A stretch of 64,000 nucleotides of DNA from Nitrosopumilus sp. (GCA_965207445.1 CBDBLX010000002.1:608001-672000); one strand, 5' to 3'. Numbered from the stretch's first letter, positions 13,098 to 52,605 are shown. Made by a program: numbers and translations. The notes: generated by a model from the sequence alone, not told the origin.

Positions 13098-14885
13098 ATG
13101 AGATCAAAGAGTGTACAACAAAAGATTACTGATTATGAATTTAACCCTGGTGATGTTCAAGATTCAAATGATTTGGGACAAAAACGCCCAAAGCTAGATC
13201 GTCTTAAACGATTTAGAGGATGGTTTACACTAAAACATGACAGGACAGTAAGGCTAGCAACATGGATGCAAAAACGTGTCTCATGGAGCAAGGGCGCAGA
13301 AAAACGAGGTCAAAAAGCCATGCGTATACTGGAAAAACCAGAGAATATAACGTGCATTAAACCTGGTCATTATGCAGTCAAATCGCAGTCCCAACCAGGT
13401 CTGTGGTATGATGTTATCCGGAAATCCACCGGAAGATATGAGTGTAACTGCTTAGATTACGAATACAGAAAAGCTAAATGTAAACACATTTTGGCGGTGA
13501 CGGCACATGTAGTGGACAATGAAGCAGAAAAAATTATGAAAAACATATCGGAGACCGACAATAAAGAGACAAACGTTACAAATCGTTGCACTACCATTAC
13601 AGAATATTGTACCAAAAAATACGATGGTGGTGATCAATTACCACACACAGAATCAAAGCAAGAAAAAGATACAGACACACAAACAAAATCTGAATTATAT
13701 GATGATAATGGTGATGATCAATTACCACACACAGAATCAAAGCAAGAAAAAGATACAGACACACAAACAAAATCTGAATTATATGATGATAATGGTGATG
13801 ATAATGGTGATGATAATGGTGATGATAATGGTGATGATAATGGTGATGATAATGGTGATAATGAATTTACAGATTCTGTTGAGCCTACACACATCTACCC
13901 CATAGATGAAAAACGCCCTCCAAAGTGTAAATACTGCAATAATACGCACATAATCAAATATGGGACACAGGAATGGACTGTAAAAGAAACAGGCCAAAAA
14001 AAGAAAGAACAAAGATGGCAGTGTAGTAAAAAAGACGGTTGTGGTGCAGTATTTGTATACAGAGCAGGCATGGAACGTATGCGTTGTAGCAAAAAAGACG
14101 TAGCAGATATGTTAAATGATTATTTCAAAGGACACTCATCACCAGCAATTTCTGACACACTAAAATCCCAAGGACTAGAAAGACATCACACCAGCATCCT
14201 CAGAACAATTGCAAAATACACCAAAATGATCAATACATACACAATGAACCTACCATTACCAAATCTTGGCGATAGATTTCATGTAGATGAAGTATATGTA
14301 AAGATAAGTAATAAAACGCATTATCTATTTACTATAATTGACTACAAGACGCGGGTATTGCTTGCAATTGAACTGGGAGGTAAAAAGGATGAATTTAATG
14401 CAACGAGCCTGTTTACAAATGCCGCAATACGTGCAAATAAGATACCCGTAGAGATTATCAGCGACGATCTTGACTCATACAAAGTTGCATTTAGAGTCGT
14501 ATACGCACAACTTAGTCCACTTGATGATCACTGTGAGCACATTTCAGATCCTGATAAAATTACACAATTGCAACGACAAAAAAAGACACAATGTATACAC
14601 AAAGACAAAGCAGGAATAAGCAAAACTCATGACAAGGGAAACAACAATGTCATTGAAAGTTTTAACAATATACAGCGAATCTGTTACAATCCTCGACGCG
14701 GAATCAAAAGCACAAAATCTGCCATAGCCATGGGCTTTAGTGTGTGGTACAACTATGTACGTCCACATGGATCATTAGGAGGTACACCCGCAGAAGCAGC
14801 AGGAATAACAATACACGGCAATAACAAATGGATTACACTCATCGGCAATGCTGGCGTGGCAGCCATGGGAGGAGCAGTGGCCTGA
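13098..14885 (+). CDS. DDE transposase (IS6-like) with N-terminal SWIM zinc finger and Zn ribbon
   Basis: SWIM CNC..CKH; CKYC...C..C ribbon; HVDEVY / ISDDL / NNVIES triad; YNYVRPH. Confidence 0.88.
   Translation: MRSKSVQQKITDYEFNPGDVQDSNDLGQKRPKLDRLKRFRGWFTLKHDRTVRLATWMQKRVSWSKGAEKRGQKAMRILEKPENITCIKPGHYAVKSQSQPGLWYDVIRKSTGRYECNCLDYEYRKAKCKHILAVTAHVVDNEAEKIMKNISETDNKETNVTNRCTTITEYCTKKYDGGDQLPHTESKQEKDTDTQTKSELYDDNGDDQLPHTESKQEKDTDTQTKSELYDDNGDDNGDDNGDDNGDDNGDDNGDNEFTDSVEPTHIYPIDEKRPPKCKYCNNTHIIKYGTQEWTVKETGQKKKEQRWQCSKKDGCGAVFVYRAGMERMRCSKKDVADMLNDYFKGHSSPAISDTLKSQGLERHHTSILRTIAKYTKMINTYTMNLPLPNLGDRFHVDEVYVKISNKTHYLFTIIDYKTRVLLAIELGGKKDEFNATSLFTNAAIRANKIPVEIISDDLDSYKVAFRVVYAQLSPLDDHCEHISDPDKITQLQRQKKTQCIHKDKAGISKTHDKGNNNVIESFNNIQRICYNPRRGIKSTKSAIAMGFSVWYNYVRPHGSLGGTPAEAAGITIHGNNKWITLIGNAGVAAMGGAVA
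13632..13863. repeat. In-frame 84-bp duplication followed by a 12-bp (DDNG)n repeat inside the transposase
   Basis: 84-bp units start at 13632 and 13716, then GATAATGGTGAT units. Confidence 0.95.
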
Positions 14886-15071: not shown

Positions 15072-16796
15072 ATGAAATTATTTAATATGATATTGTGTAG
15101 TGTTTTGGTGGCTACAGTATCATTGATAGGGTTTGAAATAATGTATACTGATAATAATGATAATAATAATAGTCTAGTAGTTCAAGAGGCTAGTGCTCAA
15201 AAACCCTACCCGCCTGAACAAATAGGACGTCTCCCAACCTCAGACATGCTACCTGTATGGACACCTAATCAACCAGCACAACCAACTGGAATGCCAGCTA
15301 ACATGAGTAACGTAAATGTTGTGTTTAATGTGGTTATACCATATCTTGGAGGTTGGATACATGAAGATGTCTCTCCATACTTTGCAGACCCCTCTGTTTC
15401 ATTTCGCTATGTTACACTTATTCTAAATGTTGGATATGATGCCAGTGCACCCTATCACCCAACTGCAGTAGGTGTATACTCTAATATCGAAAATAGACCT
15501 GTAGCCGAATATGCCGATGATGAGAACATCAATGTAGCTGTAATGCATGCTCTATACCATCTTGCACTAGAACTTGATTCGAACAAAAAGGATCGTTGGG
15601 ATGAAATGCTAACTCGTATAGGACTTGATCCTACTGATAGACGTGGCCTTGACCTTGACTGTAGCACCACTCAGACGATATCTGATCCAGTTGTAATTGG
15701 TAACTTTGCTGGAAAATGTGTCATCGAAGGACGTCAAAATGATGGATTTAACTATGGCAACACTTACTCTTACTCTGGAACTTATCCTATCATACCTAGT
15801 ACCGTTAATTATACTCCCGTAAATACTGCTACTAATCTAGTAGACCCCTCAAAGTGGCAACCACAACTAGTAACCAAACATAACACACAGTTTGTACAAC
15901 AGTTTGTAACCCCACAATGGGCAAATACAGAGCCATATGCAATAGGATTTAACCCTCGAGACATTAGAACACCTTCTCCTGTAAATAGTGACTATGCGAA
16001 CAACATGGCCGGCTACAAGGCACAAGCAGATGAAGTAATTAATGCAGTTGCAGGTTTAACAGATGAGCAAAAGATGATTATCGAATATTTTGACAACAAG
16101 GCTCGTGAAGTATTGTTCTTTCCAGCAGTAGAGGCAATCAACCCTGAGACTGGCATGCCACACAGAACAGCAGACTTTTTCCGACTAGACTTTATGTTGC
16201 ACATTGCACAATTTGATGCAGGTATATTCACATGGCAAGAGAAAGCCATACATGATGCAGTACGCCCAATAACTGCAATTCAGACAATTTACGGTGACCA
16301 GATGATTCGTACATTTAACGGACAGATGGTATCTGGAAATGACTGGACATCTTATGCTGATGTCGGAGACCACCCAGAGTATCCGTCTGCCACTGCTTGC
16401 TTTTGCGCAGCACAAGCTGCGGCATGGAAACAGTATCATGGTGGTAGTGATACAATTCCAACATTCCAACATCCTCTGTTAGGTCCAGTACCTGGATTCA
16501 CTGGTGTCCTACCTGCTGGCTCTTCAATATATGAGCCTGACATAACTCCTCAAAACAACGTGACTGTAAACTTTGATACATGGTCTGATTATGTTGATAC
16601 GTGTGGTGAGAGTCGTATATGGGCAGGACTGCACTTTAGAGATGCAGTAGATGCATCAATTGAGGTGTGTGATGATATAGGTAATCTTGCGTTTGCATAC
16701 TTTGATACTTTGCTAGATGGTACTGCACAATCGCCTAGAACTCCTGCTGTGGCACTAACTCCTTATGTGGCACCCGTGTCTGCAATTTGTCGTTAA
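15072..16796 (+). CDS. Secreted vanadium-dependent haloperoxidase-like protein (PAP2 superfamily), copy 1
   Basis: N-terminal hydrophobic signal; K-x6-RP (EKAIHDAVRP), HPEYPSAT, SRIWAGLHF; WQP..QFVTPQW segment typical of bacterial VHPO-like proteins. Confidence 0.82.
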   Translation: MKLFNMILCSVLVATVSLIGFEIMYTDNNDNNNSLVVQEASAQKPYPPEQIGRLPTSDMLPVWTPNQPAQPTGMPANMSNVNVVFNVVIPYLGGWIHEDVSPYFADPSVSFRYVTLILNVGYDASAPYHPTAVGVYSNIENRPVAEYADDENINVAVMHALYHLALELDSNKKDRWDEMLTRIGLDPTDRRGLDLDCSTTQTISDPVVIGNFAGKCVIEGRQNDGFNYGNTYSYSGTYPIIPSTVNYTPVNTATNLVDPSKWQPQLVTKHNTQFVQQFVTPQWANTEPYAIGFNPRDIRTPSPVNSDYANNMAGYKAQADEVINAVAGLTDEQKMIIEYFDNKAREVLFFPAVEAINPETGMPHRTADFFRLDFMLHIAQFDAGIFTWQEKAIHDAVRPITAIQTIYGDQMIRTFNGQMVSGNDWTSYADVGDHPEYPSATACFCAAQAAAWKQYHGGSDTIPTFQHPLLGPVPGFTGVLPAGSSIYEPDITPQNNVTVNFDTWSDYVDTCGESRIWAGLHFRDAVDASIEVCDDIGNLAFAYFDTLLDGTAQSPRTPAVALTPYVAPVSAICR

Positions 16797-17752: not shown

Positions 17753-18277
17753 ATGCTCAAAGACTTGGTGACTCCTGAGAATGCCAATGTTTTTGTTGGC
17801 AAACTCGGTGACATACTGGAGCGTGCAATTGACAAACCTCTTGGGTATGCAATAAATTGGGGCCGAATATGGTCACTGTGGCCTGTACATATTGAAACTG
17901 CGTGCTGTAGTGTAGAGTTTGGTGCTGCATCTGGACCACGTTATGATGTTGAACGATTTGGTATTATCGAAGCATTTGGTTCATTACGTCAATGTGATTT
18001 GGTGGTTGTGCAAGGTACTATAACGCGCAAGATGGCTCCAAGACTAAGGTTAGTCTATGATCAAATGCCTGAACCAAAGTATGTTATTGCCATGGGCGCA
18101 TGTGCTATTACAGGTGGACTTTATTTTGATTCATACAATGTACTACCGGGGATTGATGGTGTAATACCTGTAGATGTGTATGTACCCGGATGCCCACCAA
18201 GACCTGAGACATTAATACAGGGTTGTATCCTGTTACAAGAAAAGATCAAGAGAATGAAAGCTAGGAAGTTCGTATAA
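17753..18277 (+). CDS. nuoB: Complex I subunit B
   Basis: TACCSVE, MGACA, VPGCPPRPE. Confidence 0.96.
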   Translation: MLKDLVTPENANVFVGKLGDILERAIDKPLGYAINWGRIWSLWPVHIETACCSVEFGAASGPRYDVERFGIIEAFGSLRQCDLVVVQGTITRKMAPRLRLVYDQMPEPKYVIAMGACAITGGLYFDSYNVLPGIDGVIPVDVYVPGCPPRPETLIQGCILLQEKIKRMKARKFV

Positions 18278-19236
18278 TGAGTAAAGATTCATCGGCAGAT
18301 ACAGAAAAGCCAACATCAAATGAAGCCACTACTACAACAGCAACAAAAGCAGTACAACAATCTACTGAGAGTGATAATGCTACAGATAAAACAACACCAA
18401 AGTCTGAGAGTTCTGATGAACCTACGTCATCTGATTATACAAAAGAAAAAACTATACCCAAGCCAACATCTGATACTAAATCGCCACCAGAACAATCCAA
18501 AACATCATCTGATGTTGTAAAACCACCTGCTGCTAAACCCACACCTGCTGCTAAACCCACACCTGCTGCTAAACCCACACCTGCTGCTAAACCCACACCT
18601 GCTGCTAAACCCACACCTGCTGCTAAACCCACACCTGCTGCTAAACCCACACCTGCTGCTAAACCCACACCTGCTGCTAAACCCACACCTGCCAAAAAAC
18701 CTCTTGCTAAAAAACAACCACCCCCACCCCCACCCCCACCCCCAGAGTTTGAAAAAGGAATATCTGACAAGATATCTGCAAAATTTACTGATGGTGCCGT
18801 AACGTCCACATTCATAAAACCTGGCAGAGTCGGGATAAAAGCAGAGCGAGAGACTGTGCATATGGTCGCAGAATTTATCAGAGATGAACTTGGTTTTGAT
18901 CATGTAGAATCCGTATCTGGTGTAGATTACCCTGCAGACGGTGAGATCGAAGTAGTTTATCACATTGGCTCTTACACTAGTGACTCCTTGGCAGGTCAAA
19001 TAATTACCCTGTCCACTCGAGCACAACGTGAAGACGATCCGATACCTGGAGGTGATGCAACACGACTACCAAGCCTTCGTGATGTATTTTATAGTGTAGA
19101 GTTTCACGAGCGTGAGATATTTGAAATGTTTGGTGTATATTTTGAAGGACATCCGGACAATCGTCGACTATTATTACCCGAAGATTGGGCTGATTTACCA
19201 CCTCTAAGAAAAGACTTTGCCATAAAAGGGAGATGA
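18277..19236 (+). CDS. nuoC: Complex I subunit C with long low-complexity N-terminal extension
   Basis: EREIFEMFGVYFEGHPD..RLLLPEDW...PLRKDF. Confidence 0.93.
   Translation: MSKDSSADTEKPTSNEATTTTATKAVQQSTESDNATDKTTPKSESSDEPTSSDYTKEKTIPKPTSDTKSPPEQSKTSSDVVKPPAAKPTPAAKPTPAAKPTPAAKPTPAAKPTPAAKPTPAAKPTPAAKPTPAAKPTPAKKPLAKKQPPPPPPPPPEFEKGISDKISAKFTDGAVTSTFIKPGRVGIKAERETVHMVAEFIRDELGFDHVESVSGVDYPADGEIEVVYHIGSYTSDSLAGQIITLSTRAQREDDPIPGGDATRLPSLRDVFYSVEFHEREIFEMFGVYFEGHPDNRRLLLPEDWADLPPLRKDFAIKGR
18526..18687. repeat. Perfect 18-bp tandem repeat CCTGCTGCTAAACCCACA x9 (PAAKPT) in nuoC
   Basis: Nine identical units counted. Confidence 0.95.
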
Positions 19237-31967: not shown

Positions 31968-32164
31968 TCAACTATAGTAACTGATCTTGACAGTGGATGA
32001 CGTAATCCTGAGATCATGCAACGGGATGAGAAATTACACTTGGCTTTTCTACTTTGACAAAATACCGTTTGAATACGATCGAACCGGGAAAAACAAGAGT
32101 GCAATGCCGGCATGACCCGCCACAACATCCCGACGGATCCTGCGCGTCCTGGGCACCGCTGCAC

Positions 32165-32440
32165 TCATGCGGTATAATAGTCGTGAATCTTTACTGTCGG
32201 AATCGTCTTTTTCCTGACGGCGGCCCTGATTCTCCTGCGCACATCCGCGGCGTCCTCCATTATGATGCCCGACAGTCTGCCCTTGATGCCGTCCCACTGC
32301 GTCTCGATGGGGTTCAGCTCCGGGGTGTAGGACAGAATGAATTCAAACTGCATGTACACGTCTGTGTCCTTTGTAAACTACCTGAGCTTTGCCTTGCGTG
32401 ATAGGCATAGACGTCGTTCTCCATCACGTCCAGTTTCATG
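32165..32440 (-). pseudogene. IS630-family transposase C-terminal remnant
   Basis: FILSYTPELNPIETQW motif; upstream part disrupted. Confidence 0.75.
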
Positions 32441-32643
32441 TCCACACTTCTATTAAGAGGTTGGGATTATTTGAGTCACTAAAATAGGGTGGGCCCGAAG
32501 GGCCCCGGTGTAGCTGTAGGAACGAGCTCATACAAGTAACAACGGCAGAAAGCGAACCGGGACGCTTACAATATCTCTGCCACTCTTTTTTCTCCTCAGA
32601 GCTCCGCTTAGATGACTGGGAACGAACTTGGGCATGCAGTCAT

Positions 32644-33996
32644 CTATTTGGCATCGGATGCCGAAAAGCGCCCTATGAATAGAATAGTACCGCTCTCATC
32701 GTCTTGTATGACAAAAATGAATGGGTGATCCGCCGTGAATCTGACTGGTTCTGGCCTTTCCCCTTCAGTCATAATCATAATGGTGGTGACTGCGGCGGCT
32801 TCCGTTCCCTCCTCGTTTATGTCGACAAACGCATCCTGAAATGCGCTGGAGACGAACAGATTTCCAGTCATCGCAAGATCTGCCATGCCCGAAAAGTCTG
32901 CGCTGTTTGGATCAAAGACGCGCGGAATTCCAAGGTTACTGAGATATGTACCGAGCGGATAATGGGTTTCTGCCTTGAACTTGGGCATCAAGACTATGAC
33001 CTCCGCAGGATGCAGCTGCTGCCGCCATGCGTCAATCTTTTCTGCAGATATTGTCTTCTCCAGTTGTTCTATGGTGTTTCTCTCCGACGGCAAAAACACC
33101 AGCATTGAGAGCCTGTCGCCCTCATAGGGCATCTGCAGGACCTCCACCCCGTCTGACTCGACATAGTTGAAAAAGTCGTGGTTTTGCATAAAGTCTATCT
33201 CGGCCGTAGCTGTATCGTTTTTCCAGAATGTGTCTGTCCCGGTGCTGTTTGGATCAAATTGCGTCACCCACGTTCCTTTGAAGTATATGGCGTTGTTCAG
33301 CACGGCCACAGTGAGCGGACCGAGGTCACTTGCCTCCACTACTTCGGTTATCTTGTCGTCCGTCTTGTCGGCCGCCCAGCCGTTTATGCGCTCCGCGCTC
33401 CCCTTGGGATCACCTGCAAAATCAAGCGTCTCAATGTCTGCCAGATATACATCACGCACAACATCCGTGTACGTGTCGTACGGAACGAACCAATTGGCAG
33501 GCCACAAGGCGTTTGCAGTCTCGAGGGTGGCATTGGGATCGTCGCGGTTAATTGAGGATATTGTCTGGACGACGTGCTCGTGACGGGCTTCCACATTCGA
33601 ATAAAAGCCAAACATGCGCTCCATCTCGGCGGCAGTCTCGGCCCGCGCGCCCTCGTACAAGAATGAAAAGGCCATGTACATGCTAAAGGGGGAAAAGAAG
33701 ATGGTCTCTTCCTTGTGGTCCGGATCCCCCGCTATCTGGTTATACATGTCTATTGCGAACGCGTTATGGCGCATCGTGGCCTCGCGTGGGGTCGCGGGAT
33801 CCGAGTATGGTGTGTCCGATGGTGCATGTGTAGGGACAGGCGGTTCTGTGGTCTGGGCTGCAGGAATCTCTGCTTGCTGCAGTGCGCCCGGATCGTCCTG
33901 CACGGGTGCGTTCAATGTCAATCCCACGTACGCGACGGCGACCACTACTACGGATACGGTGACTATGGCAACTGCCAGCATTCGGCGTCTGCTCAC
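32644..33996 (-). CDS. Membrane-anchored serpin (serine protease inhibitor)
   Basis: FFSPFS, NAIYFKGTW, hinge EEGTEAAAVT, FTADHPFIF; N-terminal TM after MSRRR. Confidence 0.95.
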   Translation of the reverse strand: MSRRRMLAVAIVTVSVVVVAVAYVGLTLNAPVQDDPGALQQAEIPAAQTTEPPVPTHAPSDTPYSDPATPREATMRHNAFAIDMYNQIAGDPDHKEETIFFSPFSMYMAFSFLYEGARAETAAEMERMFGFYSNVEARHEHVVQTISSINRDDPNATLETANALWPANWFVPYDTYTDVVRDVYLADIETLDFAGDPKGSAERINGWAADKTDDKITEVVEASDLGPLTVAVLNNAIYFKGTWVTQFDPNSTGTDTFWKNDTATAEIDFMQNHDFFNYVESDGVEVLQMPYEGDRLSMLVFLPSERNTIEQLEKTISAEKIDAWRQQLHPAEVIVLMPKFKAETHYPLGTYLSNLGIPRVFDPNSADFSGMADLAMTGNLFVSSAFQDAFVDINEEGTEAAAVTTIMIMTEGERPEPVRFTADHPFIFVIQDDESGTILFIGRFSASDAK

Positions 33997-34352
33997 TGTA
34001 TGATCACCGTGTACATGGCGCGCTCCAAGTTCTGGCCGTCATGGCCTGTGATCATAAAGGCGTACGTGCCGGGCATCATGCTGGACGTGCTTATCGACCG
34101 GGAAGTCTTGACTATAAGCGCCATGATGCTGTCTTGTTATGGGACACTGTTTTTAAACGCTGTGTTTGCTGGCTTAAATTAAGATATCTTTATATATGCA
34201 GGAGTATAATAAGATAGCATGGAAACACACAAGAGGACGGCGCGCGGGACGCTGGACGCGTACTGCGATCTGCTTGCAAGGAGCGCCGAGGTGTTATAAA
34301 CAAGTACGTCAGCACTATATCCAAGGATGAAGTCGCCGAGAGGCCGACCGAT

Positions 34353-35633
34353 ATGGGAAACAGTACAGACACAGAGAATGACACTGCCAAATACAACAAT
34401 CGCAAACGGACCGCAAAGACATCAAACAAGGCTAGGATGCTAAGCAATCCGGAGGTAAGCAGGTGGCACACCAACATGGCAAGAGGATCTGCCATTACAG
34501 CGGACATCACGCTCAGGCGCCTTGACGTGTTCTGCAGGACCCACCAGATGAGTCCCATGGAACTGGCTGGCTTGGGCATGAAAGATGTGCGCACCGCAAC
34601 AAACCTGTTGGAGGACCACATAACGTGGATGGAGGACAAAAAGTACGCCCCCAGCTACGTCAACAGCTACGTAAAAGCGGTAAAGTCATGGCTGGCGCAC
34701 TTTGACGTCGAGATAAGGCGGAGGATCAAGGTCAGGAACATGAACCAGACCCCGACGCTGCAGGACGAGCGCGTCCCGGACGCATCGGAGATTGCAGAGG
34801 TCTTTGCAAGGGCGCCACTGCGAACCGCGGCGATGATCTCGCTGATGTCAAAGTCAGGCGTGAGGCCAGAGGTGATGGGAAACCATGACGGTACGGACGG
34901 ATTGAGCATGCGCGATCTGCCAGACGTTGTAATACATCAGGGCGTGGCAAAGTGCATCAGGATGCCGTGCCAGATTGTGGTACGGGCCGATCTCTCAAAG
35001 ACTAGGCACCAGTATTTCACGTTCCTGACCGCATCTGGCACGACAAAGCTGCTTGCGTATCTGAACGACAGGCTGGCGTGCGGCGAGCCGCTGCACGGCG
35101 AGTCGGCTGTGATAGCGCCCGACCACAGGCACCTGCAGCACCGCACCAGACATGCGCTCAAGACGTTCATCACGACGCTACAGATTGGCAAGGAGATCCG
35201 CAAGACATTCCGCCCTAGGTTTCAGTGGAGACCGTATATACTGCGGGCCTACTTTGACACGCAACTGCTGATCGCAGAGTCAAAGGGTAGGATTGCACAC
35301 GACTTTCGCGTCTTCTTCATGGGCCACAAGGGAAGCATGGAGGCAAGGTACACGACCAACAAGGGAATGCTGCCGGAGATGCTGACCCAGGAAATGCGCG
35401 AGTCCTTTGTGAGATCCGAGGAATTTCTGGACCTGGAGGATCACATGACGCACGAGCAGCACGACATGATGCAGAACCACAAGCAGGAGCTACAGGATGC
35501 AATACAGAGCGCGACGCCAGAACAGCTGGGCCTGATGCTAGAGGCGCTTAGAAAGAGCGCCGGCAATATGCAGAGTCCGGCTTGCCACCAGCAGAACAGA
35601 CCGTTGCAGACGCCGATGCCGCAGAGCGCCTGA
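34353..35633 (+). CDS. Tyrosine recombinase / integrase
   Basis: SGVRPE (R), LSKTR (K), YILR, MGH, EARYT (Y); adjacent to tRNA. Confidence 0.9.
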   Translation: MGNSTDTENDTAKYNNRKRTAKTSNKARMLSNPEVSRWHTNMARGSAITADITLRRLDVFCRTHQMSPMELAGLGMKDVRTATNLLEDHITWMEDKKYAPSYVNSYVKAVKSWLAHFDVEIRRRIKVRNMNQTPTLQDERVPDASEIAEVFARAPLRTAAMISLMSKSGVRPEVMGNHDGTDGLSMRDLPDVVIHQGVAKCIRMPCQIVVRADLSKTRHQYFTFLTASGTTKLLAYLNDRLACGEPLHGESAVIAPDHRHLQHRTRHALKTFITTLQIGKEIRKTFRPRFQWRPYILRAYFDTQLLIAESKGRIAHDFRVFFMGHKGSMEARYTTNKGMLPEMLTQEMRESFVRSEEFLDLEDHMTHEQHDMMQNHKQELQDAIQSATPEQLGLMLEALRKSAGNMQSPACHQQNRPLQTPMPQSA

Positions 35634-35755
35634 TTGTACAGCACGGATGGCGGTACGCGGGCACGTTGCCAAACGGCAAGGTCGTGCTACAGCGCCAGCG
35701 ACAACAACCATCACAGCAACGACAACCAACAAGGAGCTCGTTCCAGATGTAGGAG

Positions 35756-35829
35756 TGGGCCCGAAGGGCTTCGATCCCATGGCTCACCGGTTATGAGCCG
35801 GTTACTCTACCAAGCTGAGTTACGGGCCC
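35756..35829 (-). tRNA. tRNA with CAT anticodon, probably tRNA-Ile2(CAU)
   Basis: GGGCCCG/CGGGCCC acceptor (Ile-type), ACCGG-CTCATAA-CCGGT anticodon arm. Confidence 0.88.
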
Positions 35830-36059
35830 TCATCAAATGTACTTTATACCGAGGTATAAAATGTTGCTAGGTGATGTACGTAATCAATTTCAATGTACAA
35901 AATATTAACACTAATCAATAACAACTACGTATAAAGTTAAAAAATAATATATCATTATCAACAACATGTCAAAAAAACATAAAACACATCAGTTAAAATT
36001 AAAGGGGATATAGACACATCAGTACAAATCAAAGTAAAAAATTAAAATAAAAAGTGGTG

Positions 36060-44762: not shown

Positions 44763-46742
44763 TTAAGATGCATCATCAGATGGTGGGCCAATGATTTTAC
44801 ACAACTCCTCCCAGACATTTAGTCCACGCAGCTTCCACGTCTCAACACAACTGAGCATCACACAGAGATTTTCTGCTCCCTTGTCACTCTTCAACTGCAG
44901 ATGACTGTTCCTCTGACCTATTACAGGTTTCATTGACTGTTCTCCAATATTTGTGGTAGAGTAGACAAATGGATACAAAACAAATGTAAAAAGTTCGGGC
45001 GCTGCGTTTTTTAGTGTGGTGCCAAACTTTTTCATTATTTCATATCTGCTTTTTTTGTATCTAGATATTATACCACATAACCATTTTTGAAGTTTTGTAA
45101 CATATGAACGCCTACTCTTTAAAGAGCGGTCGCCACGAGTCCATTTGCGCAACGCGATAAATTTTCTGTTCAACTCATTGTACAGATTGGTAGCAGATTC
45201 AAGTTCACTACGATTTGAAATAGTTCTACTCTCCCGCACAATGTGTTGTGTGCAGCGCTGTTTTATGTGATTTGGAAATACAGTATCATATCCACGGTAT
45301 CCATCTCGACTTATTGCACCAATACAATTTTTGGCCTGTGCTATGAGATCTGTTGCACTACGATTCTGAGCGTACATGTACGCTACAGTGTCATCGTTTC
45401 TAACTGCCATTATCCATCTTTTGGGCTCACCTTTGTATTCGGTCTCATCCATGATTACTGATCGTGATTTTTCTAATTCTGCCATGAAACCATCTCTTAT
45501 GGGTTTTAGCATTGCAGTTTGACGGTCGTATATATTGCGAATTGTCGTATCAGAAACATCTAGTTTGAACAGATTCTTTAAATCTTCTGAAACCATTTTA
45601 GGGGTCTTTCTGTGCGTGGATTGATATGTTACATAGCGAATTACAGAGTAATCGAACTGACCTTTTGGTGGAAGGTTATTTTTAGCTTGAAATTTTGCAC
45701 CACAGTCAAGACAATTGTACTGGGCAGTTTTGTGTAGTGTGACAGTGTGAGGGACAAATTCAGGTATCGAAACTATTGTCCGTTTTTTATCCTTGTGGAG
45801 GTCTTGTATGTTGTTTTTACCACACTCTGGGCAACATGTAGCAATATGTCTCTTTTTTTCTGTTGGTTTGAATATATGAGTGCCACCATTATGCCCTAAA
45901 ACACCACTTCGTTTGTTGGGTTTAGCCTTGTCAGTCTTTGCACCATTTGTGTTGTTTTTGTTTTGTGCAGATGTTTTTGACTTATTATTTTTTGATTTAT
46001 TGTTTTTTGATTTATTTGGATGTATGGCGCCCTGCTTTGATGATGGTGTATGGGCATTCTCATAATAGTTGAGCTTTGTCTCATAATTTTGTATGGTTGT
46101 GTCTTTTTTCTGACTTTGTTTTTTTATAGCAGTGTTATTCTTTTCTAGGTTTGAGTTATCTTCTTCTAATGTATTGACACGGCTCTTTAATGTATTTATG
46201 ATATGATCTTTTTTCTTTAGCTCTTCATCTTTTTTCTTTAGCTCTTCATCTTTTTTCTTTAGCTCTTCATCTTTTTTCTTTAGCTCTTCATCTTTTTTCT
46301 TTAGCTCTTCATCTTTTTTCTTTAGCTCTTCATCTTTTTTCTTTAGCTCTTCATCTTTTTTCTTTAGCTCTTCATCTTTTTTCTTTAGCTCTTCATCTTT
46401 TTTCTTTAGCTCTTCATCTTTTTTCTTTAGCTCTTCATCTTTTTTCTTTAGCTCTTCATCTTTTTTCTTTAGCTCTTCATCTTTTTTCTTTAGCTCTTCA
46501 TCTTTTTTCTTTAGCTCTTCATCTTTTTTCTTTAGCTCTTCATCTTTTTTCTTTAGCTCTTCATCTTTTTTCTTTAGCTCTTCATCTTTTTTCTTTAGCT
46601 CTTCATCTTTTTTCTTTAGCTCTTCATCTTTTTTCTTTAGCTCTTCATCTTTTTTCTGTTCAAGTTGCTGAATTTTCTTTTCATATTTTATTTTTAATTG
46701 AATACATGCATCGTCTGCTTTGTTTGGTCTTTTTTGACTCAT
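44763..46742 (-). CDS. IS66-family transposase with expanded coiled coil
   Basis: TPSS, GH.G, CPECG..C..C, MDET, SRDGY..Y, QRCTQHIVR, TTNIGEQSMK. Confidence 0.9.
   Translation of the reverse strand: MSQKRPNKADDACIQLKIKYEKKIQQLEQKKDEELKKKDEELKKKDEELKKKDEELKKKDEELKKKDEELKKKDEELKKKDEELKKKDEELKKKDEELKKKDEELKKKDEELKKKDEELKKKDEELKKKDEELKKKDEELKKKDEELKKKDEELKKKDEELKKKDEELKKKDEELKKKDHIINTLKSRVNTLEEDNSNLEKNNTAIKKQSQKKDTTIQNYETKLNYYENAHTPSSKQGAIHPNKSKNNKSKNNKSKTSAQNKNNTNGAKTDKAKPNKRSGVLGHNGGTHIFKPTEKKRHIATCCPECGKNNIQDLHKDKKRTIVSIPEFVPHTVTLHKTAQYNCLDCGAKFQAKNNLPPKGQFDYSVIRYVTYQSTHRKTPKMVSEDLKNLFKLDVSDTTIRNIYDRQTAMLKPIRDGFMAELEKSRSVIMDETEYKGEPKRWIMAVRNDDTVAYMYAQNRSATDLIAQAKNCIGAISRDGYRGYDTVFPNHIKQRCTQHIVRESRTISNRSELESATNLYNELNRKFIALRKWTRGDRSLKSRRSYVTKLQKWLCGIISRYKKSRYEIMKKFGTTLKNAAPELFTFVLYPFVYSTTNIGEQSMKPVIGQRNSHLQLKSDKGAENLCVMLSCVETWKLRGLNVWEELCKIIGPPSDDAS
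46206..46655. repeat. Perfect 21-bp tandem repeat x21 (KKKDEEL heptad)
   Basis: 441 bp between first and last Asp codon = 21 units. Confidence 0.95.
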
Positions 46743-46937
46743 AGTATTGGTAAAAACCTTTGATCATATAAGTGTATTTATTATTTCCACTGATTTAGAT
46801 AGATTAATTTAAATATGAGAAAAAATATTATCGTAAAACCTTAAAATCTAAATTATTTTATTTATTCATATTCAAATTTTAAATGAATATATCAGTCAGG
46901 GAGGTTGGTTCACACAAATTTTGTAATAAAGTAGAAA

Positions 46938-47054
46938 ATGCCAGCACTGTTGCTTCCCAAGGGCTCTCGCATCTTAGTAGCACAACAGCGACATCAGGTT
47001 TGACTTCCAAGTTCGGAACGGGATTGGGTCGCACCCTGACGCTATGGCCGGCTT
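46938..47054 (-). rRNA. rrf: 5S rRNA (stand-alone)
   Basis: Reverse complement GCCGGCCATAGCG...CCCGTTCCGAAC..GAAGTCAAACC...GCGAGAGCCCTTGGGAAG...GTGCTGGC. Confidence 0.93.
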
Positions 47055-47258
47055 GTTATGTTATGTCTGAGACTTGCCTATTAACGTAACGAATTTTTAA
47101 CTTGTGCAAACTCGTCAATCATTCTATAATATTTGGTATATCAGAGTTACAATAATGTCAAATATGATCTTCATTAAAATGATAATATTGTTGATAGTGT
47201 GATAGTTTTATAATATTTCGTAAAAAAAACTATTTTATACCTTTGATGTGGAGGGTCA

Positions 47259-50249
47259 TTGGTTTACATGAAAAAAATCATCAGTGTATCCTTGTTTAGT
47301 TTGTTGATTGTATCATCTTTGATTGGTTTTGATATGGCAAATACACAAGGCGGCGATTCAAGTACAAAGATGTCTATCAAAGAGGCTAGTGCTCAAAAAC
47401 CCTACCCGCCTGAACAAATAGGACGCCTCCCAACCTCAGACATGCTACCTGTATGGACACCTAATCAACCAGCACAACCAACTGGAATGCCAGCTGACAT
47501 GAGTAACGTAAATGTTGTGTTTAATGTGGTTATACCATATCTTGGAGGTTGGATACATGAAGATGTCTCTCCATACTTTGCAGACCCCTCTGTTTCATTT
47601 CGCTATGTTACACTTATTCTAAATGTTGGATATGATGCCAGTGCACCCTATCACCCAACTGCAGTAGGTGTATACTCTAATATCGAAAATAGACCTGCAG
47701 CCGAATATGCCGATGATGAGAACATCAATGTAGCTGTAATGCATGCTCTATACCATCTTGCACTAGAACTTGATTCGAACAAAAAGGATCGTTGGGATGA
47801 AATGCTAACTAGTATAGGACTTGATCCTACTGATAGACGTGGTCTTGACCTTGACTGTAGCACCACTCAGACGATATCTGATCCAGTTGTAATTGGTAAC
47901 TTTGCTGGAAAATGTGTCATCGAAGGACGTCAAAATGATGGATTTAACTATGGCAACACGTACTCTTACTCTGGAACTTATCCTATCATACCTAGTACCG
48001 TTAACTATACTCCTGTAAATACTGCTACCAATCTAGTAGACCCCTCAAAGTGGCAACCACAACTAGTAACCAAACATAACACACAGTTTGTACAACAGTT
48101 TGTAACCCCACAATGGGCAAATACAGAGCCATATGCAATAGGATTTAACCCTCGAGACATTAGAACACCTTCTCCTGTAAATAGTGACTATGCAAACAAT
48201 ATGGCCGGCTACAAGGCACAAGCAGATGAAGTAATTAATGCAGTTGCAGGTTTAACAGATGAGCAAAAGATGATTATCGAATATTTTGACAACAAGGCTC
48301 GTGAAGTATTGTTCTTTCCAGCAGTAGAGGCAATCAACCCTGAGACTGGCATGCCACACAGAACAGCAGACTTTTTCCGACTAGACTTTATGTTGCACAT
48401 TGCACAGTTTGATGCAGGTATATTCACATGGCAAGAGAAAGCCATACATGATGCAGTACGCCCAATAACTGCAATTCAGACAATTTACGGTGACCAGATG
48501 ATTCGTACATTTAACGGACAGATGGTATCTGGAAATGACTGGACATCTTATGCTGATGTCGGAGACCACCCAGAGTATCCGTCTGCCACTGCTTGCTTTT
48601 GCGCAGCACAAGCTGCGGCATGGAAACAGTATCATGGTGGTAGTGATACAATTCCAACATTCCAACATCCTCTGTTAGGTCCAGTACCTGGATTCACTGG
48701 TGTCCTACCTGCTGGCTCTTCAATATATGAGCCTGGCATAACTCCTCAAAACAACGTGACTGTAAACTTTGCTACATGGTCTGATTATGTTGATACGTGT
48801 GGTGAGAGTCGTATATGGGCAGGACTGCACTTTAGAGATGCAGTAGATGCATCAATTGAGGTGTGTGATGATATAGGTAATCTTGCGTTTGCATACTTTG
48901 ATACTTTGCTAGATGGTACTGCACAATCGCCTAGAACTCCTGCTGTGGCACTAACCCCTGATTCGGGTGTACAAGAAACGATACGAATAGGTGCATTTGT
49001 TCAATATACAACTGCGATCGATGATACTCACAACTTGAGGGCAATGCAACTCTCAGTTGATGATCTTAACAGTGACTCTAGAATAATGACTGAATATAAT
49101 GTACAACTTGTACCAATAGACATTACAGAGAACATCAACAATGCAAACTATGCTGGTATATCTACAATAATGCAAAATGCAGTTATCAACCAAGGTATCA
49201 CGAACTTTATAGGCCCCGGTGACAGTGTAGCACTCGTGCCTGCAAAACTTGTCTCTGATCAGATTCCAAATACTGTATTGATATCTGCTGGGTCATCTGC
49301 ACCTGTGATACCACGTCTTAATGCTCCTCCGATTTATCTCAATGATACTAGTGATGGCGTATTTAGACTAGTACCAAGTGACACACATCAGTCTGAAAAT
49401 CTTTTAAATTTTATAGTGAGTGAAGGAAAAGAAAAGTTCATTATACTAGTTAGAGATGAATGGACATCAATTGTAACTAGTTTGATTCCAGATTCTGCTA
49501 GTGAATTGGTTGATTATCCTCTGATACCTTTTCCTAGAGCAGAAATCTTTGCAAATAACGAATCTGTTGCCATTGCAAGCCATTTAACATTTGCACAAGA
49601 TCTTGACAACAGATTAAGTGGCTTGATAACATCTCAAGGTGACGCGGATGATGTGGCAGTCTTGTTTATAGGATATCCACTTGACTTTGAGTATAGTGCA
49701 AAAGCTATCTTGTCTGATAACAGTTTGCAGAATTTACGTAATGTGAAATGGTATGGTGTTTCTACAATGATAGGTGAGTCTGCAACATTACGTGATGCAA
49801 GTGTAGCATCTTTTGCTAATAGCGTTGACTTGACGGGAACCAGATATACAGTTCAAAGCAACGACGTTAATGAAAATCTGTGTTATAGATTGCAACAACA
49901 AGGTACCATGTGTAGTCCATATGAATATGAAATATTTGCTTCGTATGATGCAGTACATTTGTTGGTAGATGCTATCATTTTATCTGATCATCGCAACAGT
50001 GATGCGGATCTGACAAACAACTTGTCTGTAAGAGATGCTGTATATCGTGTGGCAGCAGGACAAGACCAGCATCATTTGGCTAGTGACAGAAGAGCTGTTG
50101 GTTCTGGTGCTTTGGGTGACTATGTGCTTAACTCTGCAGGTGATTTGGAAAAACCTAGACCACTAGAGTATTCAATATTGAGTGCAACTATTGATCCGTC
50201 AAATCCATGGACCAAATTATTATCATCATCATCTCCAATATGTCGCTAG
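47259..50249 (+). CDS. Secreted vanadium haloperoxidase-like protein, copy 2, fused to a C-terminal type-1 periplasmic binding protein (LivJ-like) domain
   Basis: Same VHPO core as 15072-16796; C-terminal IRIGA, DLN, IGPGDS, LISAGSSAP, FRLVPSD, YDAV, GDL motifs; start TTG 47259 or ATG 47268. Confidence 0.82.
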   Translation: MVYMKKIISVSLFSLLIVSSLIGFDMANTQGGDSSTKMSIKEASAQKPYPPEQIGRLPTSDMLPVWTPNQPAQPTGMPADMSNVNVVFNVVIPYLGGWIHEDVSPYFADPSVSFRYVTLILNVGYDASAPYHPTAVGVYSNIENRPAAEYADDENINVAVMHALYHLALELDSNKKDRWDEMLTSIGLDPTDRRGLDLDCSTTQTISDPVVIGNFAGKCVIEGRQNDGFNYGNTYSYSGTYPIIPSTVNYTPVNTATNLVDPSKWQPQLVTKHNTQFVQQFVTPQWANTEPYAIGFNPRDIRTPSPVNSDYANNMAGYKAQADEVINAVAGLTDEQKMIIEYFDNKAREVLFFPAVEAINPETGMPHRTADFFRLDFMLHIAQFDAGIFTWQEKAIHDAVRPITAIQTIYGDQMIRTFNGQMVSGNDWTSYADVGDHPEYPSATACFCAAQAAAWKQYHGGSDTIPTFQHPLLGPVPGFTGVLPAGSSIYEPGITPQNNVTVNFATWSDYVDTCGESRIWAGLHFRDAVDASIEVCDDIGNLAFAYFDTLLDGTAQSPRTPAVALTPDSGVQETIRIGAFVQYTTAIDDTHNLRAMQLSVDDLNSDSRIMTEYNVQLVPIDITENINNANYAGISTIMQNAVINQGITNFIGPGDSVALVPAKLVSDQIPNTVLISAGSSAPVIPRLNAPPIYLNDTSDGVFRLVPSDTHQSENLLNFIVSEGKEKFIILVRDEWTSIVTSLIPDSASELVDYPLIPFPRAEIFANNESVAIASHLTFAQDLDNRLSGLITSQGDADDVAVLFIGYPLDFEYSAKAILSDNSLQNLRNVKWYGVSTMIGESATLRDASVASFANSVDLTGTRYTVQSNDVNENLCYRLQQQGTMCSPYEYEIFASYDAVHLLVDAIILSDHRNSDADLTNNLSVRDAVYRVAAGQDQHHLASDRRAVGSGALGDYVLNSAGDLEKPRPLEYSILSATIDPSNPWTKLLSSSSPICR

Positions 50250-50424
50250 TTGTCTCAAATACTATATTTACAGTACAATAAAGATACCATTAAAAATATA
50301 ATCAAAAGTACTTGTAGTATGTCTATGATATTTTTTGATTAAAATAATTTTGCAAAGCAGTATTTGTAAATAAAATATATGATTAAACTACTTTAACCTG
50401 TCAGTGGTGCTATTGACGTTATTG

Positions 50425-50572
50425 ACGTGAACCAATATCCATAAATAATATAATCATTTAAAAATAACTACTAGCCAAATGCATCGCATGTACGATACTC
50501 GATATGCAGAAAAAATGTGAGCAAATACACGTATGTGATTTTATTATTATATCCAAAGAGTTTGGTTCACAC
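50425..50572 (+). mobile_element. Full-length 148-bp MITE family A with 8-bp TSD CGTTATTG
   Basis: (AC)GTGAACCAA ... TTGGTTCACAC; CGTTATTG at 50417-50424 and 50573-50580. Confidence 0.82.
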
Positions 50573-50585
50573 CGTTATTGATATT

Positions 50586-50683
50586 GATGCTATTGTGGTG
50601 ATGCTATTGTGGTGATGCTATTGTGGTGATGCTATTGTGGTGATGCTATTGTGGTGATGCTATTGTGGTGATGCTATTGTGGT
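50586..50683. repeat. Perfect 14-bp tandem repeat GATGCTATTGTGGT x7
   Basis: Directly visible, no spacers. Confidence 0.95.
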
Positions 50684-50808
50684 GATGATGGTGTTATTGT
50701 TTTTATTGTAATTTTATTTACAAATCTACAATCTACAATTAAACGATTATTATAATATCATTTAGACTTATGCACCACGTATAAAACGAGTATATTTTAG
50801 CACAATAC

Positions 50809-52605
50809 ATGACTCATCGTGTTGCGGTACTTGACAAAGACTTGTGTCAGCCTAGAAAATGTGGTCTAGAATGTATTAAATACTGTCCTGTAAACAAATC
50901 TGGTGCTGATTGTATAGTCCTTGATGAGACCTCAAAAAAGGCTACTATTGATGAGAATATATGCAATGGATGTGGCATATGTGTCAAGGTATGTCCGTTT
51001 GATGCCATTACCATAGTAAATCTTGCAGAAGAGCTTGCAACTGACAAGATACACCAATACGGACCAAATTCGTTTCGACTGTATCGTCTACCTGTGCCAA
51101 AAAAAGGTGAAGTTATGGGATTGCTTGGACGAAATGGAATGGGAAAGAGCACCATAATCAACATACTGTCTGGTAGTATGCCGCCGAATTTGGGGCGCTA
51201 TGATGACCCTCCACAATGGGATGAGATTTTACAATATTACAGTGGCACTGAACTCAAACGACACTTTGAAAAGATAATGAACAACGAGTTGAGATCATCT
51301 ATAAAACCGCAACAAGTCCAGATGATTTCATCTGCATTTGATGGAACTGCATCAGAGTTAATTGAGAAATATGATGAACGCAATGTTTCACAAAAGATGA
51401 TCACTGATCTGAATCTTGAAAACTCCGTTGATCGTATGGTACAAGAGTTGAGTGGTGGTGAGCTACAACGTGTTGCAGTTGCAGTTGCTGCATCTCGTGA
51501 TGCTGATTTTTACTTTTTTGATGAGCCTTCTTCTTACAATGATGTCTTTCAGCGAATGGCAGTCGGACGCGTCATACAAAATTTGGCCAAAATAGGAAAG
51601 AGTGTGATGGTAGTTGAGCATGATTTAACACTACTTGACTTTCTAAGTGATTATATTGATGTAGTATATGGTGAGCCTGCCGCATACGGGATTGTATCTG
51701 GTGTACTCTCAACTAGAGTGGGTGTTAATGTCTTTCTTGATGGATATCTGCCTTCTGAGAATGTCAGATTTAGAGAAAAAAAGTTCTCATTTGATGCATC
51801 TTCTGCAACTACACCTGATGATGTTTTTGATGCAGGTGATGTGATCGTATCGTATCCACAAATTGAAAAAAAGTATGATTCTTTTGATGTTTCAATAAAT
51901 GCTGGTCGTGTACGAAAGGGTGAGATATTGGGTGTGATGGGTGCAAATGCACTTGGCAAGACTACTATGATGAAGATGATTGCAGGTGTGTTAAATCCTG
52001 ATTTGGGACATGTTGATTCTAAATTAAAACTTGCATACAAACCACAATACTTGGATAACTCAAAAAACCCCAATGTTGATGTCGTTTCGTTATTATCAAA
52101 GGCAAATGATAATCAGATCGAGGGCAGCATTGAGGAAGAGCAGGTAGTGGACCCGTTGCGCATAAAAAAGTTGTATAACAAATCCGTATCCACACTATCT
52201 GGTGGTGAACTGCAAAAGGTGGCAATTGCTACATGTCTGTTACAAAAGGTTGATTTGTATGCGCTAGATGAACCGTCTGCATTTTTGGATGTAGAGGATA
52301 GAATAACTCTTGCAAAGTTTATTCAAAAGTTTGTTCGTTCATTTGGCAAATCCGCAATTATAATTGATCATGATTTACAGCTTATGGATCTTGTCTCTGA
52401 TTCAATGATTATATTTGAAGGGCAGCCAGGTATTCGTGGTACTGCCACAAGTCCATTACCAAAAGTAGATGCAATGAATAGATTTTTGAGATCACTTGAT
52501 ATGTCATTTAGGCGAGATGAGAAAAGTATGCGCCCCCGCGTAAACAAGCCTGAAAGCAGACTTGACAAGACACAAAAGACAGCAGGCACATTTTATTATA
52601 CATGA
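50809..52605 (+). CDS. rli1: Ribosome recycling ATPase ABCE1/Rli1
   Basis: N-terminal Fe-S (CQPRKC..C...CP; CNGCGICVKVCP), two ABC domains with LSGGELQ. Confidence 0.96.
   Translation: MTHRVAVLDKDLCQPRKCGLECIKYCPVNKSGADCIVLDETSKKATIDENICNGCGICVKVCPFDAITIVNLAEELATDKIHQYGPNSFRLYRLPVPKKGEVMGLLGRNGMGKSTIINILSGSMPPNLGRYDDPPQWDEILQYYSGTELKRHFEKIMNNELRSSIKPQQVQMISSAFDGTASELIEKYDERNVSQKMITDLNLENSVDRMVQELSGGELQRVAVAVAASRDADFYFFDEPSSYNDVFQRMAVGRVIQNLAKIGKSVMVVEHDLTLLDFLSDYIDVVYGEPAAYGIVSGVLSTRVGVNVFLDGYLPSENVRFREKKFSFDASSATTPDDVFDAGDVIVSYPQIEKKYDSFDVSINAGRVRKGEILGVMGANALGKTTMMKMIAGVLNPDLGHVDSKLKLAYKPQYLDNSKNPNVDVVSLLSKANDNQIEGSIEEEQVVDPLRIKKLYNKSVSTLSGGELQKVAIATCLLQKVDLYALDEPSAFLDVEDRITLAKFIQKFVRSFGKSAIIIDHDLQLMDLVSDSMIIFEGQPGIRGTATSPLPKVDAMNRFLRSLDMSFRRDEKSMRPRVNKPESRLDKTQKTAGTFYYT

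Follow-up and report, generated by a model that had tools for sequence, protein, structure and literature searches.

Vanadium haloperoxidases (VHPOs) drive much of marine organohalogen chemistry. In esVHPO, a selective bromoperoxidase of Enhygromyxa salina and the best match of the protein described here among solved structures, H496 is the vanadate ligand, K373, R380, R490, S427 and S429 surround the vanadate, and K329 is the lysine that hands the oxidised halide onward; how selective bacterial-type VHPOs find their substrates is a current question (PMC12633397). The combination of a lysine and a serine has been used to flag selective VHPOs, and NapH3- and MarH2-like proteins are close non-halogenase homologs, which is a caution (PMC13519999). 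Here a gene is described in a 64,000-nucleotide stretch of a Nitrosopumilus sp. genome (GCA_965207445.1, CBDBLX010000002.1:608001-672000; the window, with positions counted from its first letter) whose predicted product joins a VHPO of this type to a type-1 periplasmic-binding-protein (PBP) module, as summarised in Table 1. The genome carries amoA (387 bits), so that ammonia-oxidising archaeon, the label given to the host in the initial annotation of this DNA, is a fair one.

The fused reading frame

The segment 47259..50249 had been annotated as one fused frame, and the mechanical open reading frame (ORF) on the plus strand, beginning at TTG 47259, is uninterrupted over 996 codons. The ATG at 47268 is the likelier start, and the exact product of 993 amino acids (aa) from this ATG is present in a public protein collection; residue numbers throughout are those of the 996-aa translation from TTG 47259. 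By inspection of the sequence a TATA-like TTTTATA (47233-47239) lies about 30 nucleotides (nt) and a GGAGGG (47250-47255) about 12 nt 5′ of the ATG, and both may have a role at the start of the gene. Because the only strongly hydrophobic stretch in the hydropathy profile is N-terminal, with no other membrane-like segment, the protein is probably exported or anchored via its N-terminus, in agreement with the signal peptide noted earlier. DUF6851, VCPO_2nd and ANF_receptor all exceed their curated Pfam cut-offs, and an NCBIfam search of the fusion protein returned 0 families.

The enzyme module

The core of about 530 aa, first recognised as VHPO-like from its K-x6-RP, PSAT and SR-x5-H motifs, contains all three and is matched both by Pfam and by solved structures. 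Residues 64-554 of the fusion matched esVHPO best (9ptr_A, E 6.7e-98), followed by 9l8x, named 'Vanadium-dependent haloperoxidase' by its depositors (E 6.1e-82), NapH1 (3w35, E 4.5e-73) and NapH3 (8cxl, E 3.2e-67), and the fungal chloroperoxidase matched it only at about 1e-3. The chain numbering in the structure alignment equals that of PMC12633397 with an offset of +20, consistently over all seven residues named there. On this basis esVHPO H496, K373, R380, R490, S427, S429 and K329 correspond to H524, K394, R401, R518, S442, T444 and K346 of the fusion, with conservative changes at two positions, Ser429 to Thr444 and Glu327 to Asp344. When the fusion was aligned with 19 homologs (alignment A3), H524, K394, R401, R518 and S442 were invariant in 20/20 sequences, as was the K346 column (20/20), and A443 and T444 were near-invariant. 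Because the A443 and T444 columns hardly vary, PSAT is taken as a signature of the archaeal VHPO clade and not as a defect of the gene. As to the Lys-Ser dyad of the selective branch (esVHPO K329/S429), the lysine is kept as K346 and the serine position is occupied by Thr444, which retains the hydroxyl. No PAP2 match was found in the fusion protein by Pfam, which listed three families at E up to 1. Judged by these matches the enzyme module is a VHPO of the esVHPO/NapH1 type with a complete set of predicted vanadate-pocket residues, and it is quite likely to be an active haloperoxidase.

The binding module

The remaining portion of about 430 aa had been assigned to a type-1 PBP of the LivJ/ANF-receptor kind, and Pfam, an AlphaFold2 model and Foldseek agree on this. 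ANF_receptor matched the whole fusion protein at 3.8e-10 (39.8 bits, cut-off 25.4) and residues 568-996 alone at 3.9e-11 (43 bits, same cut-off). An AlphaFold2 model of residues 568-996, built from a nine-sequence alignment (pLDDT 78, pTM 0.78), predicts the two-lobed alpha/beta Venus-flytrap fold that the annotation led one to expect. With this model Foldseek retrieved LivJ/LivK and other leucine-binding proteins, and likewise the amino-terminal domains of mGlu, GABA-B and glutamate receptors, in both cases at E ~1e-14 with probability 1.00, and with TM scores, normalised by target length, of up to 0.75. Look-alikes of the query in the ESM Atlas were generic PBP clusters only (0.77) and uninformative. 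At the level of profiles, the PBP family matched the leucine-binding protein 4mlc at 3.2e-06 and LivJ at ~0.01 with only the N-lobe aligned, the motifs G-x-x-x-S and S-S-A-P coinciding with ligand-contact loops of LivJ.

The nearest relatives of the module are stand-alone exported proteins of 450-489 aa with 45-56% identity (P0081, P0220 and P0041, 49-56%), and the second half of an 847-aa tandem protein is 49% identical to it; bigger members of the family hold two or four copies of the domain. The fusion retains 99 of 109 family-conserved columns, defined as those on which at least 7 of the 8 remaining sequences agree, and the stand-alone relatives retain 88-98%. The module thus has no sign of decay in its conserved positions, and it somewhat more probably binds a small ligand than does not. 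No permease or ATPase genes of an ATP-binding cassette (ABC) transporter were found beside the fusion gene with Pfam on the neighbours. A recent transfer of the PBP part from high-GC relatives was ruled out, its GC content of ~0.40 being host-like as against ~0.61 for the relatives' loci.

Table 1. Features of the fusion gene, of its surroundings in the window, and other partners of VHPO modules found in homologs.
Feature	Location	Strand	Basis and remarks
Fusion gene	47268..50249	+	993 codons plus stop from ATG at 47268
N-terminal region particular to the fusion copy	47259..47379	+	Hydrophobic export signal or signal-anchor (predicted), then conserved ..LIGF..EASAQKPYPP lead-in
VHPO core, direct repeat of 15184-16766	47380..48962	+	1583 bp, 98.99% identity, 16 mismatches, no gaps (blastn)
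DUF6851 domain, first helical bundle of bacterial-type VHPOs	47619..48059	+	aa 121-267; Pfam 2.6e-28, 99.6 bits (cut-off 27)
D344-N-K346	48288..48296	+	K346 corresponds to the esVHPO halide-transfer lysine K329, D344 to E327 (PMC12633397)
VCPO_2nd domain, second helical bundle with vanadate site	48396..48917	+	aa 380-553; Pfam 7.7e-28, 98.2 bits (cut-off 27)
K394-x6-R401-P402, two predicted vanadate ligands	48438..48464	+	Correspond to esVHPO K373 and R380 (same source)
P441-S442-A443-T444	48579..48590	+	Corresponds to esVHPO S427-A428-S429 (same source); Thr replaces Ser of esVHPO and NapH1
S517-R518-x5-H524	48807..48830	+	R518 corresponds to esVHPO R490, H524 to the vanadate-coordinating H496 (same source)
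Linker and junction	48921..48977	+	..AQSPRTPAVALTP / DSGVQETIR..
Type-1 PBP (Venus-flytrap) module	48978..50213	+	aa 574-985; Pfam ANF_receptor aa 593-906
C-terminal tail P-I-C-R and stop codon	50235..50249	+	'-CR' tag
Stand-alone VHPO paralog P0002	15072..16796	+	574 aa, ends ..AICR; donor or partner of the repeat
5S rRNA gene	46936..47055	-	Left edge of the fusion-gene insertion; Rfam 78.9 bits; synteny
ABCE1/RLI gene	50809..52605	+	Right edge of the fusion-gene insertion; Pfam; synteny
IS66-family transposase ORF	44763..46742	-	Between zinc-finger gene and 5S; Pfam DDE_Tnp_IS66 3.3e-26
IS240-type DDE transposase with SWIM finger	13098..14885	+	Directly 5′ of paralog P0002; Pfam
VHPO partner: Cache repeats	P0079; G018, G149, G130, G185; cluster P0078		
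VHPO partner: HYR, Ig and cadherin domains	P0075		
VHPO partner: GDSL lipase and RTX	P0184		
VHPO partner: DUF4114	P0165		

The junction and the upstream paralog

The initial annotation placed the junction near 48960, and it is real and sharp. It did not note that the window also contains a paralog, P0002, located 32 kb 5′ of the fusion gene, to which the VHPO core is 99% identical as a copy. Identity to P0002 stops at 48962, exactly at the boundary between the VHPO and PBP domains; 3′ of the repeat P0002 ends as ..TPYVAPVSAICR and the fusion runs on as ..TPDSGVQETIRIGAF.., the peptide across the joint being ..VALTPDSGVQETIR... On the 5′ side the N-termini of the fusion and P0002 are homologous yet strongly diverged in the protein alignment. 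A sharp tract of near-identity flanked by such old divergence points to gene conversion between the paralogs or to a recent duplication of the core; both would fit, and neither dates the fusion. The two core copies differ by 10 synonymous and 6 non-synonymous substitutions (dN/dS 0.17, binomial p 0.0008 against neutrality), and by this measure they are separate sequences whose divergence, dating from the time they were last the same, has been shaped by purifying selection.

The first residues of the PBP part correspond to the beginning of the mature stand-alone PBP relatives, just past their signal peptides. Neither the enzyme's own tail nor the signal peptide of the PBP is retained at the joint, and no stop codon, spacer or leader remnant is left there; read-through or frameshifting between adjacent genes was ruled out on the same ground.

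Distribution of the fusion and of other VHPO partners

The initial annotation knew of no described VHPO-PBP1 fusion, and no second one came up in proteins, clusters, or the 151 genomes of the genus and 401 of the class that were searched. A word-indexed protein search returned 72 proteins of 547-1743 aa, 71 of the VHPO type and one of the PBP type, none with both domain sets. HMMER against 1.84 billion representatives gave 1536 matches; among the 150 listed the best was a VHPO-only protein (681 bits), the five VHPO matches of at least 800 aa each had a single matched stretch, and no VHPO-PBP fusion was found. Since the 993-aa fusion protein itself is hidden in the cluster of its 574-aa paralog, ten multi-member VHPO clusters were examined, with no member longer than 638 aa among the 66 listed of 72; the longest members of the P0003 and P0224 clusters were 569 and 461 aa. 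VHPO matches occurred in 9/151 genomes of the genus and 16/401 sampled from the class, and a match running from 1 to 996 was found only in the source genome (0/8 other VHPO-bearing genomes of the genus, 0/15 other matching genomes of the class). Three relatives (G096, G152 and G112) have a VHPO and a PBP homolog of 45-50% identity in separate frames, ~300 kb apart in G152, and no VHPO lies within 6 kb of any of four PBP-homolog loci from Nitrosopumilaceae bins. The entries for P0224 (PBP) and P0006 (VHPO) each list a longest contig of 19,297 nt; the P0224 contig that was scanned is 5 kb long and starts inside the gene.

In other homologs the VHPO is joined to different partners (Table 1), among which the Cache repeats stand closest in kind to the PBP module. 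P0079 matched dCache_2 at 1.5e-14, and the N-terminus of the G018 protein matched dCache_2 (28.8 bits) and sCache_2 (25 bits) at the cut-offs. The Cache-VHPO proteins of relatives are at least 1040 aa long (loci L025, G018:C1:1762684-1767105, and L024 in G130, with further ones in G149 and G185). It follows from these fusions that the joining of a VHPO to a predicted extracellular ligand-binding module is a recurrent theme in the group, of which the PBP1 version is the singleton.

The C-terminal tail

Both the fusion and P0002 (tail at 16785-16793) end in -CR, often preceded by I or V ([IV]CR) where this ending occurs. Among 219 fetched proteins 29 end in -CR, namely the closest VHPOs and the PBP family, and another VHPO group ends in ..PH[FW]TGR; this second tail, ..DPLL..PH[FW]TGR, stands in place of -CR in many homologs. 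In the source genome the ending is enriched: 18 of 3337 crude ORFs of at least 100 aa have it against 5.1 expected, and 11 of 493 of at least 400 aa against 0.75 expected, 9 of these 11 with a strongly hydrophobic N-terminus (examples at G000:C2 1528388-1539865, 1919310-1923995, 1106725-1109988 and 482760-484043). Pfam on ten -CR proteins gave three giant adhesin-like proteins with Ig, FG-GAP, fn3 or cadherin domains, two proteins of ~1560 aa with dCache_2, one SBP_bac_5 and ANF_receptor fusion, three with SBP_bac_3 and one with ANF_receptor. By this survey the fusion joins two members of one '-CR'-tailed, putatively exported set in which binding modules have already been shuffled, and '-CR' may be a tag for sorting or anchoring that has yet to be described in archaea.

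Proposed function and alternatives

We hold with moderate confidence that the gene encodes a real, lineage-specific, exported two-module protein in which a halogenating enzyme carries a tethered module, proposed to serve in ligand capture or retention. The gene would be young, the outcome of a shuffling of domains between genes for exported proteins where insertion sequences abound; the PBP module would come from the organism's own '-CR'-tailed family of exported binding proteins and replace the short native tail of the enzyme, and the core would owe its near-identity with the stand-alone paralog 32 kb upstream to a recent duplication or gene conversion. Vanadate would be bound via H524, K394, R401, R518 and S442/T444, and the chemistry would run as in esVHPO, with H2O2 activated, halide oxidised and the resulting halogen species handed by K346 to an organic substrate. 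The PBP module would then not be a transporter component; it may keep a small solute, probably resembling an amino acid, close to the halogenating site at the cell surface, or may retain the enzyme itself there. That the two activities are functionally coupled is a tentative proposal, and substrate channelling or ligand gating between the modules, as suggested in the initial annotation, is speculative. The most far-reaching version, a surface machine in which the flytrap binds a sponge-holobiont metabolite that resembles an amino acid and passes this on to a site-selective bromoperoxidase, forming with the Cache-VHPOs an undescribed class and with '-CR' as a new sorting or anchoring signal, is a long shot.

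Several observations weigh against this reading of a coupled two-module protein. The fusion is a singleton across all protein, cluster and genome searches, so that there is no comparative evidence of selection keeping the modules together, and VHPO and PBP genes are unlinked in the three relatives that have both, as they are at the four PBP loci. Thr444 stands where the Lys-Ser dyad has its serine. The ligand cannot be read from the PBP sequence because the N-lobe alone aligns with 4mlc and LivJ, the C-lobe contacts being unaligned. The joint itself was not independently seen, as set out below.

Chief among the alternatives is a real fusion with uncoupled modules, the PBP being a passenger or scaffold that contributes only the '-CR' tail and a position in the envelope and the enzyme working like its paralog, which is a serious possibility, though well short of an even chance. 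Singleton status and the lack of linkage in relatives speak for it, as does the occurrence of the PBP family as single, double and fourfold arrays and in mixed fusions within large exported proteins, much like a structural or display module. The stand-alone VHPO also has a '-CR' tail of its own, from which it follows that both proteins are likely handled alike. Against a passenger role, the PBP module lacks relaxation at family-conserved positions, and the same enzyme has been fused independently to Cache modules in relatives, which suggests that binding modules are useful to it.

Another explanation is that both VHPO copies serve mainly as a sink for external H2O2, with halogenation as a side effect and the PBP holding a sacrificial acceptor. 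Neither catalase (PF00199) nor KatG-type peroxidase (PF00141) was found in the source genome, which is 96% complete and has two genes for putatively exported VHPOs, both kept under purifying selection; marine ammonia oxidisers are described as H2O2-sensitive and without catalase in PMC6593220. These two findings together mean that peroxide removal may be part of the benefit. As the principal function it is improbable: the product would be a hypohalite or haloamine, reactive and at least as harmful as H2O2 unless it is quenched, the enzyme appears to fall in a substrate-selective branch that retains the oxidised halogen (PMC12633397), and VHPO is patchy, being present in only 9/151 genomes of the genus.

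The fusion could also be a chimera of assembly or of mixed strains, in which the 1.58-kb repeat caused a VHPO to be joined with a PBP gene unrelated to it, the fused frame being present in no single cell. The repeat of 99% identity ends exactly at the junction, contamination of the genome bin is 5.47%, and a random join lands in an open frame about one time in three. Public reads were consulted in runs X1-X3, which are one sample and probably the data from which the assembly was built, a point that weakens them as witnesses, and in X5, a sponge metagenome of another study, and X6, also from sponge; both contain close relatives of the source organism. All sampled 31-mers of 47000-50400 are present in X1-X3 (1.00). 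A contig in X1 and X3 bridges 47003-47409, from the 5S gene through the N-terminus of the fusion copy into the core, and a 1576-nt contig in X1/X3 equals 47380-48955 with 0 differences, separate branch contigs carrying the 5′ and 3′ flanks of the other copy as loose ends. A 257-nt contig in X5 spans 47289-47543, with one difference in the copy-specific part (47289-47379) and the letters of the other copy at two polymorphic core sites; since it bridges the fusion-copy N-terminal region into the core, a second VHPO locus exists in a related population, and it is silent on the VHPO-PBP joint. No contig of X1, X3, X5 or X6 covers 48960-50400, a gap that by itself proves nothing. As to a possible misassembly at ~48960, public contigs thus confirm the 5′ side and both repeat copies, and the joint itself stays unseen in them.

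Misassembly through a repeat exchanges flanks and creates no new joint, so that whichever 5′ flank is true the joint between core and PBP must exist in the data. In addition, what is lost at the joint is precisely the tail of the VHPO and the signal peptide of the PBP, with no remnant left, the assembled path preserves the conserved 5S to ABCE1 neighbourhood, and neither an orphan PBP 5′ end nor a third copy of the repeat occurs anywhere in the genome. A chimera is therefore unlikely, and the fusion is very probably real. Separately, a contig of 5.4-6.7 kb in X1/X3 matches just 24-50 nt of the VHPO core (window 48278-48433) with several mismatches and continues GC-rich, which suggests that a related VHPO gene is present in some other organism of the sample.

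VHPOs and PAP2 acid phosphatases have a common anion pocket, so the enzyme might instead be a phosphatase, or a non-halogenating enzyme like NapH3, whose substrate the PBP binds. The least favoured of the alternatives, it has on its side the match to NapH3 at 3.2e-67, the close non-halogenase homologs of the NapH3 and MarH2 kind (PMC13519999) and the Thr in place of the dyad Ser, and is very doubtful given that halogenating enzymes give the best matches (esVHPO at 6.7e-98, NapH1), that the transfer lysine and all vanadate ligands are conserved, and that PAP2 gave no Pfam match at E up to 1.

Genomic neighbourhood and mobile elements

The fusion gene sits between 5S rRNA and ABCE1 as an insertion particular to its lineage. 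In G152 and G009 the M17 peptidase gene is followed by a small zinc-finger gene, then by 5S rRNA and ABCE1, with a 5S-ABCE1 gap of ~100 bp; relative to these two genomes the window has two insertions, the IS66 transposase between the zinc-finger gene and 5S, and the fusion gene with a 560-bp tail between 5S and ABCE1. An unrelated 2.9-kb insert with Fic-like and acetyltransferase-like ORFs occupies the same 5S/ABCE1 spot in G149. The neighbours of the fusion gene are accordingly 5S rRNA, IS66 transposase, M17 peptidase, ABCE1/RLI, TYW2 and an MFS protein. ABCE1/RLI is a ribosome-recycling factor and not a transporter.

Several repeats were noted nearby. Positions 50427-50573 hold a dispersed repeat of ~147 bp with terminal inverted repeats GTGAACCAA / TTGGTTCAC, resembling a miniature inverted-repeat transposable element, which has 91 copies of at least 90 nt genome-wide (71-86% identity, fold z-score -3.0) and no Rfam match; that it is specific to '-CR' genes was ruled out, just 5/91 copies following such genes. 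A perfect tandem array with a 14-nt unit (x7.4) lies 3′ of the fusion gene at 50585-50687, and another with a 21-nt unit (x21.5), encoding (KKDEELK)n, lies within the IS66 transposase ORF at 46206-46657. The IS240-type transposase ORF (13098-14885) also has internal peptide repeats, and an ORF at 18277-19236, in a nuo-like gene row, has a long (PAAKPT)n repeat in its N-terminal half. Further along, 32001-36000 is a GC-rich island (0.53 vs ~0.39 around) that ends at a tRNA gene (35756-35829) and contains a gene for a 450-aa serpin (32644-33996, minus strand, Pfam Serpin 8.6e-110) and a 426-aa ORF with no Pfam match; the island looks horizontally acquired.

Comparison with known systems

Literature on VHPOs in ammonia-oxidising archaea was not found in a search outside which most subscription journals lay, and none was found on haloperoxidase-Cache fusions; public annotations name VHPO homologs in sponge-associated Cenarchaeum bins. 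Identifying the ligand of the PBP module may identify the substrate of the enzyme, so that the fusion and the Cache fusions offer an experimental handle, and the system is relevant to how catalase-free ammonia oxidisers cope with peroxide. The fusion may also be a young evolutionary accident, and greater importance may attach to the archaeal VHPO clade, to the Cache fusions and to the '-CR' tail than to this single gene.

For the PBP module the described counterparts are LivJ/LivK and the ANF_receptor flytraps (2LIV, 1Z15, 4MLC/4Q6B, mGlu, GABA-B), of the same fold and Pfam family, which differ in having 12-17% identity, whereas here the module is fused to an enzyme, has a -CR end and has no ABC-transporter partner nearby. 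The stand-alone '-CR' PBPs of sponge-associated Nitrosopumilaceae (P0220, P0081, P0224, P0041; L034-L037) are nearer, with 45-56% identity across the full module, the conserved Cys pair and -CR, and differ in their own signal peptide, their single or tandem domains and the absence of an adjoining VHPO in 4/4 loci.

On the enzyme side, NapH1 (3W35/3W36) and NapH3 (8CXL) of Streptomyces napyradiomycin biosynthesis belong to the same family and have in common the K-x6-RP, PS-x-x and SR-x5-H motifs, but are cytoplasmic or embedded in a pathway within a biosynthetic gene cluster, and no such cluster surrounds the fusion gene. The Cache-repeat-VHPO fusions of relatives have a VHPO of the same clade (46-48% identity) with an extracellular small-ligand-binding module; Cache is, however, not PBP1, it is N-terminal in G018 and P0078, and the tail is ..PSWTGR and not -CR. 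Closest among solved structures is esVHPO (9PTR/9PTS), with its two helical bundles, secretion signal, K/R/S/R/H ligands and transfer lysine, which by contrast is bacterial, a stand-alone homodimer without a binding module, and acts on alkyl quinolones (PMC12633397). Measured against these systems the fusion gene is a new domain architecture composed of two well-known families, its VHPO clade being one already named in public annotation.

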